Notes: generated by a model from the letters alone, not told the origin. 64,000 bases of DNA from Escherichia coli (GCF_003018235.1 NZ_CP027437.1); one strand, 5' to 3'; shown: positions 52,797 through 55,982, counted from the first letter of the stretch. Program-made: numbers and translations.

Positions 52797-52836
52797 GCCG
52801 GATAATATAAAAAGTTATCCGGCAAATTATTTTTTA
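52797..52836. terminator. Bidirectional terminator between yggM and the TRAP operon
   Basis: Perfect 9-bp inverted repeat gccggataa / ttatccggc followed by aaattatttttt. Confidence 0.65.
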
Positions 52837-54135
52837 CATTAGCCCTAGTAGCTGTGGAATGAACAAGGATATTTGCGGGATGTAAGTGATCATCATCAAC
52901 GCGATTAACAATGCGGCATAAAATGGCAGCAATGGTTTGATCAAATGTTGAATCTTCACACCTGAAATAGAACAACCAACAAATAGCGCACTACCCACCG
53001 GCGGTGTTAACAGCCCAATACAAAGGTTGGCCACCATCATAATACCGAAATGTACCGGATCCATTCCCAGCTCTTGTGCAATCGGCAAGAAGATTGGTGT
53101 GAAGATTAGTACAGCCGGTGTCATGTCCATAAAGATGCCGACAATTAATAAGACGATATTAATCAGCAGCAATATGACCAGTGGGTTATCAGAAATCCCC
53201 ATCAACGCGTCGCTGATCATATAAGGAATATCAGCATTGGTCATTGCCCAGGACATGCCCACGGAAAAACCGATCAACAGTAATACAATCGAAGTGGTAA
53301 CAACCGATTCCAGAATCAGTTTGGGTAAATCGCGCCATTTTACTTCCCGGTAAATCAGCACCGAGAGAATAAATGTGTAGACAACGGCAATCGCAGACGC
53401 TTCAGTTGCGGTAAAAATGCCGCCCAGAATGCCGCCCATCACAATGAACACCAGAAGCAAACTTGGTAAGGCATCCAGAAACGCTTTACAGGCCTGAGCA
53501 AAGGTTGCTCTTTCTGAAAGCGGGTAGCCACGGCGTTTAGCAATAATGCCGCAGACTATCATTACCGCAAGACCCATTAAGATCCCTGGCAAATATCCCG
53601 CCATAAATAACGATGCTACAGAAACGCCACCAGCTGTCAGGGAAAACACAATTAACACGTTTGAGGGCGGTATCAGTAATCCAGTAATACAGGATGAGAC
53701 GTTTACAGCGGTAGAAAATGCCGGATCATAACCTTCTTTGGTCTGAATGGGATTCAGTGTGCCACCAACGGCAGCAGCTGCCGCAACGGCTGAACCAGAA
53801 ATGGAACCAAACATCATATTCGCCAGGACGTTCACATGACCAAGCGAACCAGGAACGCGGCCAACCATTACCTGGGCGAGGTTAATCAAACGTATCGCAA
53901 TACCGCCGCTGTTCATCAGCGTTCCGGCAAAGATGAAAAAGGGGATTGCCAACAGGGCAAAGTTATCCAGTCCATTAGCCAGTCGTTGCGAAACAGTGAT
54001 TGCCGCGATATCCCAGGGAAACATCAAAAGCATTGAAGCTACAGTGGCAATACCGATTGAGAACGAAATGGGCACACCAATAAAGACCAGCACAAAAAAA
54101 CAGCCAAACAGTGTAATCGCGATATAACTATCCAT
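52834..54135 (-). CDS. TRAP transporter large permease subunit (DctM family)
   Basis: 433-aa polytopic ORF with DctM-like glycine-rich TM segments; stop/start overlap with the small subunit. Confidence 0.8.
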   Translation of the reverse strand: MDSYIAITLFGCFFVLVFIGVPISFSIGIATVASMLLMFPWDIAAITVSQRLANGLDNFALLAIPFFIFAGTLMNSGGIAIRLINLAQVMVGRVPGSLGHVNVLANMMFGSISGSAVAAAAAVGGTLNPIQTKEGYDPAFSTAVNVSSCITGLLIPPSNVLIVFSLTAGGVSVASLFMAGYLPGILMGLAVMIVCGIIAKRRGYPLSERATFAQACKAFLDALPSLLLVFIVMGGILGGIFTATEASAIAVVYTFILSVLIYREVKWRDLPKLILESVVTTSIVLLLIGFSVGMSWAMTNADIPYMISDALMGISDNPLVILLLINIVLLIVGIFMDMTPAVLIFTPIFLPIAQELGMDPVHFGIMMVANLCIGLLTPPVGSALFVGCSISGVKIQHLIKPLLPFYAALLIALMMITYIPQISLFIPQLLGLM

Positions 54136-54647
54136 TAACTGGCCTCCTGCGCAGGTTGTTTCAGTTGTTGAATGCTTTGATTAATAAAACACAAGGCATA
54201 AAACATCATCACCAATCCACTTAATGGCAGAATGATATATACGTATCCCATCGGTATTTGCATCGCGTCAGATACCTGTGATGTTGCCAGTGTTTTATCA
54301 ATTAATTTCAGGCCACCAGTCACAATGACCGAACCGGCAAAACCTAAAATAAGAACGTTAATGACTATACTAAGAAGTAATTGCTTGCGCTTATTCAGGG
54401 CGAGAGCAAATAAATCGATAGAGAGATGTCTCTGCGCGCCGACGGTATATGCAGCACCTAATAATCCTACCCAGATCATCAAAAAGCGTGCCAGCTCATC
54501 GGTTAATGTACTTGGCTGGTTAAGTACGTAGCGGCTAAATACTTGCCAGACTACGCATACAACCAGAGCAAGCATTACGGCGACAGAAAACGCGGCAATG
54601 ACGCGGTCTACCGCAAGTTTCAGGCGGTTAAATATCATTGTAAGCAT
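54135..54647 (-). CDS. TRAP transporter small permease subunit (DctQ family)
   Basis: 170-aa ORF with four predicted TM helices between the DctP-like and DctM-like genes. Confidence 0.75.
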   Translation of the reverse strand: MLTMIFNRLKLAVDRVIAAFSVAVMLALVVCVVWQVFSRYVLNQPSTLTDELARFLMIWVGLLGAAYTVGAQRHLSIDLFALALNKRKQLLLSIVINVLILGFAGSVIVTGGLKLIDKTLATSQVSDAMQIPMGYVYIILPLSGLVMMFYALCFINQSIQQLKQPAQEAS

Positions 54648-54682
54648 CCTGGAAAATCAGGGCCAGAGACTGGCCCGAAATA

Positions 54683-55669
54683 TTATTGAGCAGCGTTGTC
54701 GAATTTCTCTAACAAAGCAGCTTGTTTTGGATCTTTTTTGAAGTCGTCAAACAGAGGTTGAACTGCGGCACGGAATGGGGCTTTATCAACCTTAACGATT
54801 TCACCACCCATAGCTTTCGCCTGAGCACGTGTGTCAGCGTCAATTTTTTCCCACAATTTTTGTTGATAAGCTTCGGATTTCTTCGCCGCTGTTTCGAGGA
54901 TTTGTTGCTGTTCTGGGGTTAATTTATTCCATGTTTTGGTGGAGATAACCAAAAAGTCAGGAATTGAGGCATGTTCATCTTCAGAAAAGACTTTGGCAAT
55001 TTCGATATGTCGAGTCTGCACCCAGGAAGGCACGTTATTTTCTGCGCCATCTACTACACCTTGCTGCATCGCAGTATAAACTTCGCCAAATGAAATTGGA
55101 GTGGGTGAGCCACCCATCAGTTCAATCATTTTGATGGTGGTCGGGCTTGGCTGAACACGAATTTTCAGCCCTTTAAGATCTTCTGGCTTAGTAATCGGTT
55201 TTTTCGCATAGAAACTGCGTGTACCCGCTACATAAGCTGATAAAGCAAAAAAGCCTTTATCTTTTGTTGAATCCATAATTTCTTTACCAACTTCACCAAA
55301 AACCACTTTGTTGAAGTGCGCCTGATCTTTAAATAAGAACGGCAAATTATAGATAGCATAAATATTATCAAAAGACTCCAGATCACTGGCGGAACCTTTG
55401 GTCATATCCAGTGCACCATTTTGCAACAACTCCATAGTTTCTCGCGCATTACCCATCTGGCTGCTGGGGTAAATACGGATCACCATATTACCTTTTGACA
55501 GCTGTTTTACTTCTTTCGCCAGCTCTTCAAAACTCTGATGTACAACATGACTTCTTTCCAGGTTGTGTGCTAACTTTAACGTCACTTTTTCTGCGGCGTT
55601 TACGCCAGTGCTAACCAGAGCCAGCAAGGATGCGCAGACTAATGAGCGGGTAAATGACCTCATTTTCAT
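54683..55669 (-). CDS. TRAP transporter periplasmic solute-binding protein (DctP family)
   Basis: 328-aa ORF with signal peptide (LLALVSTGVNA) and DctP-like length and composition; first gene of the three-gene unit. Confidence 0.8.
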   Translation of the reverse strand: MKMRSFTRSLVCASLLALVSTGVNAAEKVTLKLAHNLERSHVVHQSFEELAKEVKQLSKGNMVIRIYPSSQMGNARETMELLQNGALDMTKGSASDLESFDNIYAIYNLPFLFKDQAHFNKVVFGEVGKEIMDSTKDKGFFALSAYVAGTRSFYAKKPITKPEDLKGLKIRVQPSPTTIKMIELMGGSPTPISFGEVYTAMQQGVVDGAENNVPSWVQTRHIEIAKVFSEDEHASIPDFLVISTKTWNKLTPEQQQILETAAKKSEAYQQKLWEKIDADTRAQAKAMGGEIVKVDKAPFRAAVQPLFDDFKKDPKQAALLEKFDNAAQ

Positions 55670-55954
55670 AAAAAAACTCCCTGTTGAAGAATGGAAATTG
55701 GTTGATATCTAATTGTGCTTATCAGTGCTTTGTGCGACAAATTGGTTAACCTGTCTGACAACTTGTCTATGTTTATCACAACTTGAAATAAAGTCAGAAA
55801 TTAAATATTAATTTTGTGCGCCAGGTTGTACATGTTTATAATCAATAAATGATGAGTAAATATTCACTAAATATATATAATAAATATCGTCGATATTTAT
55901 TCAGTAAGAAATATATTTTTGCCGAAGTTAATTAACGGGGGGGTAAAAGAAGTG

Positions 55955-55980
55955 ATTAATGCGCCCGCAGGCGCATTAAT
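55955..55980 (-). terminator. Hairpin 2 nt downstream of the hemW stop
   Basis: Perfect 11-bp inverted repeat attaatgcgcc / ggcgcattaat with 4-nt loop at 55955-55980. Confidence 0.55.
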
Positions 55981-55982
55981 GA

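Follow-up and report, generated by a model that had tools for sequence, protein, structure and literature searches.

A DctPQM-type TRAP transporter operon beside hemW in Escherichia coli: a candidate hexuronate uptake system

Escherichia coli is known to use hexuronates as carbon sources in the gut, where they are released from glucuronides of the host, from mucus and from pectin in the diet. The core E. coli carrier for them is ExuT, a hexuronate:H+ transporter of the major facilitator superfamily (MFS) that belongs to the ExuR regulon. The sole tripartite ATP-independent periplasmic (TRAP) system of K-12, YiaMNO, transports 2,3-diketo-L-gulonate; GaaPQM of Agrobacterium is a described hexuronate TRAP transporter, and the survival of Salmonella in macrophages is aided by a related TRAP system. 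The binding protein of STM3169–STM3171 of Salmonella Typhimurium binds D-glucuronate with a dissociation constant of ~0.2 uM (Herman et al. 2020, PMC7660916). The solved binding protein 4N91 likewise binds D-glucuronate, 4MHF binds both D-glucuronate and D-galacturonate, and 4N15 was the template for modelling the glucuronate binder STM3169 (PMC7660916). The analysis presented here concerns a three-gene TRAP operon that lies, together with its upstream region, at positions 52834–55982 of a 64,000-nucleotide stretch of E. coli DNA (GCF_003018235.1, NZ_CP027437.1; referred to below, at its full length, as the window), between yggM and hemW.

The operon consists of three contiguous open reading frames, all in one direction on the minus strand. 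A preliminary description of the window had called them DctP-, DctQ- and DctM-like genes of a TRAP transporter, and this identity (Transporter Classification 2.A.56) is close to certain, since the Pfam and NCBIfam subfamily cut-offs are exceeded by wide margins: (i) DctP matches PF03480 (E 2e-84, 283.8 bits against a cut-off of 23.4) and TIGR00787 (285.7 bits against 175); (ii) DctQ matches PF04290 (E 2.5e-30, 105.5 bits); and (iii) DctM matches PF06808 (E 1.9e-121, 406.2 bits) and TIGR00786 (473.9 bits against 268). The solved chain closest to DctM is 7qha_B (E 2e-92), a large permease deposited as a 'putative TRAP-type C4-dicarboxylate transport system', and the other close structures are those of the sialic-acid permease SiaT (7qe5, 8thi) and the isethionate DctMQ (9pym); this resemblance to solved TRAP membrane components supports the standard binding-protein-plus-elevator mechanism of the family. 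RefSeq gives the genes generic product names only, and a search of the accessible literature library returned no paper on the hemW-adjacent TRAP operon of E. coli. The operon is an uncharacterised, new example of an already known transporter type, not a new kind of system.

With a probability of roughly 0.6, we propose that the operon is a high-affinity hexuronate uptake system that is repressed in trans by ExuR/UxuR. It would take up D-galacturonate and/or D-glucuronate alongside ExuT, the core carrier, whose affinity would be lower. The secreted DctP would capture the sugar acid in the periplasm, holding its carboxylate through R151 and R171, with N211 in addition, and would then dock on the DctQ–DctM membrane complex, which would move the substrate inward by an elevator movement with a cation gradient as the drive. 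Transcription would start in the AT-rich region that follows the hemW terminator, and a GntR/FadR-family regulator encoded elsewhere, most likely ExuR and possibly UxuR as well, would repress it by binding two operators that lie 21 bp apart and overlap the core promoter. A hairpin after dctP would probably raise the ratio of binding protein to membrane subunits.

Predicted substrate and repressor

A hexuronate (D-galacturonate and/or D-glucuronate) is the probable substrate, and we consider the genomic context of the homologues stronger support for it than the 36–40% identity of DctP to solved structures. In Aeromonas rivuli, Aeromonas molluscorum and Pantoea sp. IMH, whose homologues are 60% identical, uxaA-uxaB-uxaC are followed by a divergent dctPQM-exuR group, the TRAP genes occupying, between uxaC and exuR, the place that exuT holds in K-12. 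The homologues of Vibrio fluvialis (52%) and Pseudovibrio flavus (53%) both have a GntR/FCD regulator, a mannitol-dehydrogenase-family enzyme and UxaC as neighbours, joined by UxuA and a PfkB kinase in the former and by an altronate-dehydratase-type enzyme in the latter. Each of the four homologue contexts (52–60%) is linked to uxaC/uxaB/uxaA or uxuA/uxuB.

The structural relatives of DctP belong to a set of TRAP binding proteins solved by structural genomics (Enzyme Function Initiative, EFI). Searches of the PDB with Foldseek, for which an AlphaFold2 model of DctP was used (predicted local distance difference test score 92.3), and with HMMER gave 4ln5, 4ovr, 4n15, 4mhf, 4x8r and 4n91 as the best matches, and both the nine best by sequence and the sixteen best by fold come from this same EFI set (E 1e-58 to 1e-68). 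Beyond the entries with the ligands given above, others of the set (e.g., 4N15/4N17/4LN5 and 4OVR) are described as hexuronate binders. R151 and R171 of DctP are invariant in a 40-sequence alignment and align with arginines of 4ovr, 4n15 and 4mhf; R171 stands at the position of the arginine that holds the substrate carboxylate (SiaP R147, STM3169 R170), and N211 is conserved in a separate alignment of 15 sequences. These three residues match the R/R/N triad described for glucuronate binders, and, in a mapping made from the numbering and the 4mhf/4n15 alignment, N36, R151, R171, N211 and D238 would correspond by position to the STM3169 ligand contacts N35, R150, R170, N210 and D237. The preliminary description had given the substrate as unknown; the PDB relatives and the homologue contexts would narrow it to the hexuronates.

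In E. coli the operon stands alone, and it must be controlled in trans, whereas the Aeromonas, Pantoea, Vibrio and Pseudovibrio hexuronate TRAP operons, which are 52–60% identical to it, are linked to uxa or uxu genes and to an exuR- or uxuR-like gene. An alignment of the upstream regions of seven genera contains two conserved islands, TGTCnGACAA and, 12 nt further on, TGTCATACA, amid divergent AT-rich DNA. We scored the window with an ExuR-type matrix of 21 positions, built from sites with a T.GT-N3-AC.A core in front of K-12 exuT, uxaC, exuR and uxaB (two sites 22 bp apart) and of Aeromonas uxaC and exuR, with no TRAP promoter in the training. The first of two predicted operators, box 1, scored 17.4, the best of all 63,980 positions in the window, and agrees with the K-12 exuT site AAAGTTGTATGACAAGTT at 14 of 18 bases; box 2 scored 9.0 (rank 10 of 63,980). 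Box 1 contains a -35-like hexamer and is conserved in 45 loci. When the 300 bp before dctP were scored in 45 loci, the two best sites lay 21 bp apart at about -87/-66 in about 35 species, relocated copies of the operon included, and the boxes are also conserved among three divergent E. coli alleles. K-12 uxaB has the same tandem operator layout, with 22 bp between the sites, and the Aeromonas and Pantoea dctP promoters have ExuR-type boxes after a TGTGA-N6-TCAA site. As a sequence motif, the predicted operator is a secure indication of a GntR repressor of the FadR type, but it singles out ExuR only when the genomic context is added; for ExuR itself, possibly together with UxuR, the odds as we see them are a little better than even. 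The prediction would give the ExuR regulon a new member with two defined operators.

Several observations weigh against a hexuronate transporter under ExuR. The identity of DctP to the solved uronate binders is only 36–40%, and the substrate assignment rests on homologues of 36–60%. If the one-residue offset between the two proteins is constant, L37 and A75 replace Q36 and E74 of STM3169, both reported ligand contacts; A75 stands where the GSE motif has its Glu. Three pocket segments also differ from those of the solved uronate binders, G-N-A-R-E-T standing in place of G-S-E-K-D/E-T, YVAGTR in place of Y-D/E-S-G-A-R, and SPTT in place of SD. No catabolic gene or regulator adjoins the operon in E. 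coli or in any syntenic genus. As to the promoter, the conservation of the boxes across species reflects shared ancestry and does not amount to 35 independent observations, and a simple sigma-70 scan gave no strong match at the boxes. The ExuR-type matrix, moreover, gives the K-12 DgoR operators, which are likewise 21 bp apart, a score of 10.4; with this cross-reaction, the motif says more about the family of the regulator than about which of its members is at work.

An alternative is that the same transporter serves another sugar acid, such as D-galactonate, L-galactonate, L-gulonate, fructuronate, tagaturonate or a pectin product, under the control of DgoR, LgoR or UxuR alone. Pocket segments unlike those of all solved uronate binders, at so low an identity, would suit this reading, as would the DgoR operators: like the TRAP promoter, they have a TGT-N3-ACA core, stand in tandem 21 bp apart and adjoin a TGTGA. 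The right half of box 2, TAC, is typical of DgoR sites, and D-galactonate stabilised the related STM3169 in a thermal-shift assay, though the authors saw no specific binding (PMC7660916). Yet box 1 in E. coli agrees with the exu operators at 15 of 21 positions and with the dgo operators at only 11 of 21, and its right half is GAC, as in the exuT and uxaB sites. All four independent contexts of the 52–60% homologues, moreover, contain uxaC, not dgo or lgo genes, and we consider a substrate other than a hexuronate, or one of these other repressors acting alone, unlikely. A further and doubtful suggestion is that the clade with the remodelled pocket (Enterobacteriaceae and Aeromonas) may bind a sugar acid that is new to TRAP transporters, for example fructuronate, tagaturonate or a uronate derived from the host or from pectin. 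The Aeromonas and Pantoea homologues share the signature residues of E. coli DctP; the solved structures do not.

The K-12 DgoR operators, TTGTAGTACAA and TTGTACTACAT, follow a TGTGA motif, a layout like that of the TRAP promoter and of uxaB. The 21–22-bp tandem arrangement shared by dgoR, uxaB and the TRAP operon hints that promoters under sugar-acid repressors of the FadR type are built to one plan.

Two further elements of the promoter bear on its control, and both are put forward tentatively. Between the boxes lies a palindrome that is the top match in the window of a UxuR-type matrix made from three sites, by a marginal lead (12.4 against 11.9 for the next match), and a 13-mer there, GGTTAACCAATTT, occurs also in a K-12 uxuA site; the palindrome was not conserved in the other genera of the upstream alignment, and it may be read as tentative evidence for UxuR. 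Control by CRP is a comparably tentative prediction. The TGTGA of the CRP-like site is kept in five of seven genera, and K-12 exuT and Aeromonas dctP have TGTGA-N6-TCAC/TCAA ahead of the operator, at a different distance.

Ancestry and distribution of the operon

In K-12 MG1655, yggM and hemW are adjacent, with 154 bp of repetitive extragenic palindromic (REP)-type sequence between them, and homology between the window and K-12 ends at the yggM stop codon (52778) and restarts at the hemW stop codon (55983). The preliminary description was right that K-12 has no TRAP genes at this junction, but its view that they had been inserted is contradicted by the position of the operon after hemW in at least 24 species, by a divergence equal to that of the flanks and by the lack of mobility features. 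Orthologues of the binding protein at 84–94% identity are widespread in Enterobacteriaceae, and in these 24 or more species the operon lies directly downstream of rdgB-hemW and ahead of yggM, ansB or yggN; the genera with this arrangement are Salmonella, Citrobacter (4 species), Pseudocitrobacter, Kluyvera (6), Klebsiella (7), Leclercia, Pluralibacter and Phytobacter. Across 24 species, the mean identity to E. coli is 89.5% for the three TRAP proteins and 89.1% for the flanking HemW, RdgB, TrmB and YggN, and the two values are correlated (Spearman 0.75, p = 2e-5). The GC content of the operon tracks that of the host (43% in E. coli, 51% in Salmonella, 52–55% in Klebsiella and Kluyvera, 57% in Edwardsiella), always staying a few points under the flanks. 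The segment contains no mobility genes or border-spanning repeats, and no tRNA gene lies within 19 kb. The usual marks of a genomic island, that is, an integrase, transposase or insertion sequence (IS), an adjacent tRNA gene, flanking repeats or excess similarity to a donor, were absent from the locus.

Taken together, synteny, flank-equal divergence and the lack of mobility features argue that the K-12 arrangement is the derived, deleted state. From these comparisons we regard it as close to certain that the operon is ancestral at the hemW site and that K-12 carries a deletion, the gap now being filled by REP elements. The evolutionary direction is thereby corrected to a loss in K-12, not a gain in this strain.

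The strongly AT-rich region of ~310 bp that the preliminary description placed upstream of the binding-protein gene measures 313 bp, with 31.3% GC overall and 25.1% in its core (55780–55950); the whole window has 51.8%. Such AT-richness is not a sign of foreign origin, since the upstream 300 bp have 32–36% GC in every Enterobacteriaceae genus examined and carry the conserved two-box operator.

That a horizontally acquired module was inserted between yggM and hemW in the lineage of this strain is, we think, very unlikely. The operon is missing from K-12 and from about 72% of complete E. coli genomes, and one scan of a genome collection did not find it in representative genomes of other named Escherichia species; its position after hemW is nonetheless the same, with flank-equal divergence, in 24 species of at least eight genera, and no genus shows excess similarity, the best, Citrobacter amalonaticus, having 92.3% for the TRAP proteins and 92.6% for the flanks. 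The GC content of 43%, against ~52% in the flanks, might suggest a foreign source, but operon GC lies under flank GC in every genus and follows that of the host. Copies at other loci, including one near IS66 fragments in C. freundii, show that the operon can move, yet at this locus there is no integrase, IS, tRNA gene or flanking repeat. Finally, the last 48 bp of hemW form a patch, common to TRAP-positive E. coli, that diverges sharply and by synonymous changes only, possibly a recombination import; some E. coli may have regained the operon by homologous recombination from a divergent Escherichia lineage, but such re-import would restore the ancestral locus rather than insert a novelty.

These last 48 bp of hemW (55983–56030) have about 13 synonymous differences from K-12 that are common to all three TRAP-positive E. 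coli compared, the end of the HemW protein being identical, and identity of hemW to K-12 drops from 99% to 83% toward the junction, a gradient that yggM does not have. The hemW gene of strain E2863 is K-12-like up to the patch and then switches, and so is recombinant; in Escherichia sp. MOD1, which is TRAP-positive, most of the patch is of the K-12 type. On the other side of the operon, yggM varies much more than the genes around it (identity of 63% in Salmonella, 29–38% in Kluyvera, Klebsiella and Phytobacter), no full-length yggM match was detected in several of the species compared, and ansB is missing from this position in Kluyvera, Klebsiella and Leclercia. From the TRAP operon to yggN, gene content thus turns over unusually often.

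The operon is found elsewhere in the chromosome in Buttiauxella, Edwardsiella, Mangrovibacter and Enterobacillus. One relocated copy with a two-box promoter, that of Buttiauxella, lies between a ydgH-like gene and a phosphotransferase system/isoaspartyl-peptidase cluster, and the C. freundii copy that adjoins the IS66 transposase fragments has also retained the two-box promoter.

Within E. coli, a near-identity search with the segment in 5426 complete genomes found it in 1492, complete in 1460 of these at 95–100% identity, and found the K-12-type empty junction complete in 3910. With 1460 operon carriers and 3910 empty sites, the locus is essentially two-state, and the strain variability suspected earlier is borne out by this count at the yggM–hemW junction. 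Carriers among the records sampled include sequence type 69 (ST69), enterotoxigenic E. coli (ETEC), and O26 and O111 Shiga toxin-producing E. coli (STEC); in K-12, Nissle 1917 and two large cattle isolates the site is empty. Selection that differs between niches may have preserved this presence/absence polymorphism over a long time, which we hold to be doubtful; bearing on it are the occurrence of the operon in O26/O111 STEC and ST69 and not in K-12 or Nissle 1917, and the deep divergence of the flanking hemW haplotypes. If the proposed function is right, about a quarter of E. coli can scavenge hexuronates with high affinity in a way not open to the K-12 model, and competition at low substrate could be affected in carriers that include O26/O111 STEC, ST69 and ETEC isolates.

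Of the 1508 matching places, a single one lies on a plasmid; up to three occur in some genomes. A chicken isolate has only a 211-bp dctQ fragment at 90% identity, possibly a deletion remnant. Short contigs with the E. coli TRAP operon (98–100% protein identity) have been deposited as metagenome-assembled genomes of a Collinsella sp. and a Bacillota bacterium, and an Alicyclobacillaceae assembly contains a 433-bp TRAP fragment at 99% identity; all of these would seem to stem from faulty binning or from contamination.

None of the three reading frames is truncated, the proteins being as long as their orthologues, and among three E. coli alleles the synonymous divergence (dS) of the three genes is 0.03–0.29 and the ratio of non-synonymous to synonymous divergence (dN/dS) 0–0.15. 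Purifying selection maintains the operon in about 27% of E. coli; the others, among them K-12, have it deleted. It is scarcely credible that the operon is decaying and, where strains retain it, no longer functional or expressed, for although its repeated loss, an AT-rich region that might be silenced and the lack of a linked regulator would fit decay, the intact frames, the low dN/dS and the conservation of the operator boxes, the Shine-Dalgarno sequence and the intercistronic hairpin do not.

A strict C4-dicarboxylate DctPQM transporter for succinate, fumarate or malate is just as improbable: it has the family names in its favour, the PDB label 'TRAP dicarboxylate transporter' being generic, but characterised C4-dicarboxylate DctP proteins (9dsy, 9dtl, 9ht3) match DctP at only E 1e-31 to 1e-33, far below the uronate-binder set, no dctB/dctD-type regulator lies nearby, and the homologues stand in hexuronate clusters. 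Of the 'C4-dicarboxylate or sugar-acid' uptake given in the preliminary description, the sugar-acid class agrees with the uxa/uxu contexts; the C4-dicarboxylate is unlikely.

Features of the locus

The coordinates of the genes and of the predicted elements are given in Table 1. The dctQ reading frame extends beyond the start that we adopted, ATGATATTTAA at 54638, which is kept in 12 genera and is also the start used by RefSeq (504 bp) in other E. coli. The N-terminus of DctP, MKMRSFTRSLVCASLLALVSTGVNA followed by AEK, looks like a Sec signal peptide.

Table 1. Genes and predicted sequence elements at the yggM–hemW junction (window coordinates)
Feature	Position	Strand	Remarks
yggM	51771-52778	+	flanking gene; DUF1202
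Hairpin TTTGCCGGATAA...TTATCCGGCAAA	52794-52826		perfect, 12-bp arms; between convergent yggM and dctM
dctM-like gene	52834-54135	-	large membrane (elevator) subunit, 433 aa; start overlaps dctQ stop by 1 base
dctQ-like gene	54135-54638	-	small membrane subunit, 167 aa from conserved ATG; open reading frame reaches 54647
Stem-loop GGGCCAGTCTCTGGCCC	54660-54676	-	GC-rich, with T-rich tail; dctP-dctQ gap; terminator-like match
dctP-like gene	54683-55669	-	periplasmic substrate-binding protein, 328 aa, DctP family
dctP-hemW upstream region	55670-55982		AT-rich
Conserved element AGATATCAACCAATTT	55695-55710	-	probable 5' leader; second copy of AACCAATTT
Box 2, CCAATTTGTCGCACAAAGCAC (TGTCATACA in most genera)	55725-55745	-	predicted operator; centre 66 bp before ATG, 21 bp from box 1
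Palindrome GGTTAACC, flank ACCAATTT	55738-55757	-	between boxes; resembles K-12 uxuA UxuR-type sites; E. coli-specific
Box 1, ACAAGTTGTCAGACAGGTTAA	55746-55766	-	predicted ExuR-type operator; TGT-N3-ACA core; centre 87 bp before dctP ATG
CRP-like site TGTGATAAACATAGAC	55765-55780	-	just upstream of box 1; good left half, poor right half
AT-rich spacer	55781-55954		~25% GC; between hemW terminator and promoter/operator block; poorly conserved sequence
hemW terminator hairpin ATTAATGCGCCTGCGGGCGCATTAAT	55955-55980	-	with T-rich tail
hemW	55983-57119	-	flanking gene; TIGR00539, 474 bits

Three hairpins punctuate the locus. The hemW terminator, whose GCGCCTGCGGGCGC hairpin is also found in Salmonella and Leclercia, is predicted to insulate the TRAP promoter from hemW read-through, and the hairpin between yggM and dctM is likely a bidirectional terminator. 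In the dctP–dctQ gap, single-sequence folds place a strong hairpin at the same position in 12 of 12 genera, its stem sequence differing in Leclercia, Buttiauxella, Edwardsiella and Mangrovibacter. RNAalifold, applied to a MAFFT alignment of this spacer, recovered only four pairs; the hairpin was missed because of misalignment, and with so few pairs its covariation lacks formal support. It is probably a partial terminator or an mRNA stabiliser that would raise the amount of binding protein over the membrane subunits, in keeping with a widespread way of favouring the mRNA of the binding protein. Rfam gave only a chance-level match in the region, which speaks against a riboswitch or a known small RNA there.

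The promoter itself can be placed, by inference, in the AT-rich region. The conserved element in the probable leader recurs in E. coli, Salmonella, K. variicola and, partly, Kluyvera, and forms a 9-nt direct repeat with 55739–55747. A palindrome of 23 bp without mismatch within the AT-rich spacer (AATAAATATCG-T-CGATATTTATT, 55879–55901) is probably not functional, since it is interrupted in E. coli AZ159 and other genera lack it. A homopolymeric C/G tract after the hemW terminator (55937–55943) has 7 bases here and 13 in E2863, and is replaced in AZ159.

Two other matches of the ExuR-type matrix were set aside. The second best in the window (52810–52830, AAAAGTTATCCGGCAAATTAT, score 14.7) coincides with the yggM/dctM terminator hairpin and is probably due to chance; a match at 30584, inside a type II secretion gene, was also treated as chance. 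Elsewhere in the window, a prepilin peptidase (A24 family), a type II secretion protein C and a secretin at 28986–33338 are apparently part of a type II secretion cluster.

Comparison with known systems

YiaMNO belongs to the same transporter family and has the same three-subunit architecture, but orthology was rejected: the equivalog models scored 38.3 against a cut-off of 260 for YiaM and 296.2 against 800 for YiaN, and the YiaO model did not match the binding protein at the search threshold. ExuT shares with the operon the predicted substrate and the predicted repressor; it is, however, an unrelated single-component MFS carrier and not a binding-protein-dependent elevator, and it is core where the operon is accessory.

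In its proposed mode of working the operon resembles the EFI uronate binders, GaaPQM and STM3169–71, and in function it would parallel ExuT. The EFI hexuronate binders Bpro_3107 (4MHF/4MIJ), Bamb_6123 (4N15/4N17/4LN5), the Xanthobacter protein (4OVR) and Apre_1383 (4N91) are its best matches by sequence and by fold (E 1e-60 to 1e-68, target-normalised TM-score 0.92–0.94, root-mean-square deviation 1.7–1.9 A) and share the arginines and the asparagine of DctP.

STM3169–71 differs from the operon in its chromosomal locus, Salmonella LT2 having no listed TRAP genes next to hemW, and in its reported control by SsrB/ppGpp, an ExuR-type operator being predicted in E. coli. The C-terminus of STM3169, deduced from published primers, is ...KDLEYIENM, against ...EKFDNAAQ in E. 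coli DctP. The genome-collection scan gave no Salmonella entries, nor did a search of a representative library with a cluster look-up, which returned Vibrio, Pseudovibrio and other marine taxa; with no Salmonella locus in the scan, STM3169 is probably not a close orthologue of E. coli DctP, the two having been compared by locus and C-terminus only. The likeness is otherwise considerable. Both are enterobacterial three-gene DctP-type TRAP operons with no adjacent catabolic genes or regulator, both binding proteins have the same EFI set as their nearest structures (4N15 being the best template for STM3169), and the carboxylate- and hydroxyl-binding triad R150/R170/N210 of STM3169 corresponds to R151/R171/N211 of E. 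coli DctP. STM3169–71 has, moreover, been proposed to complement ExuT at low substrate.

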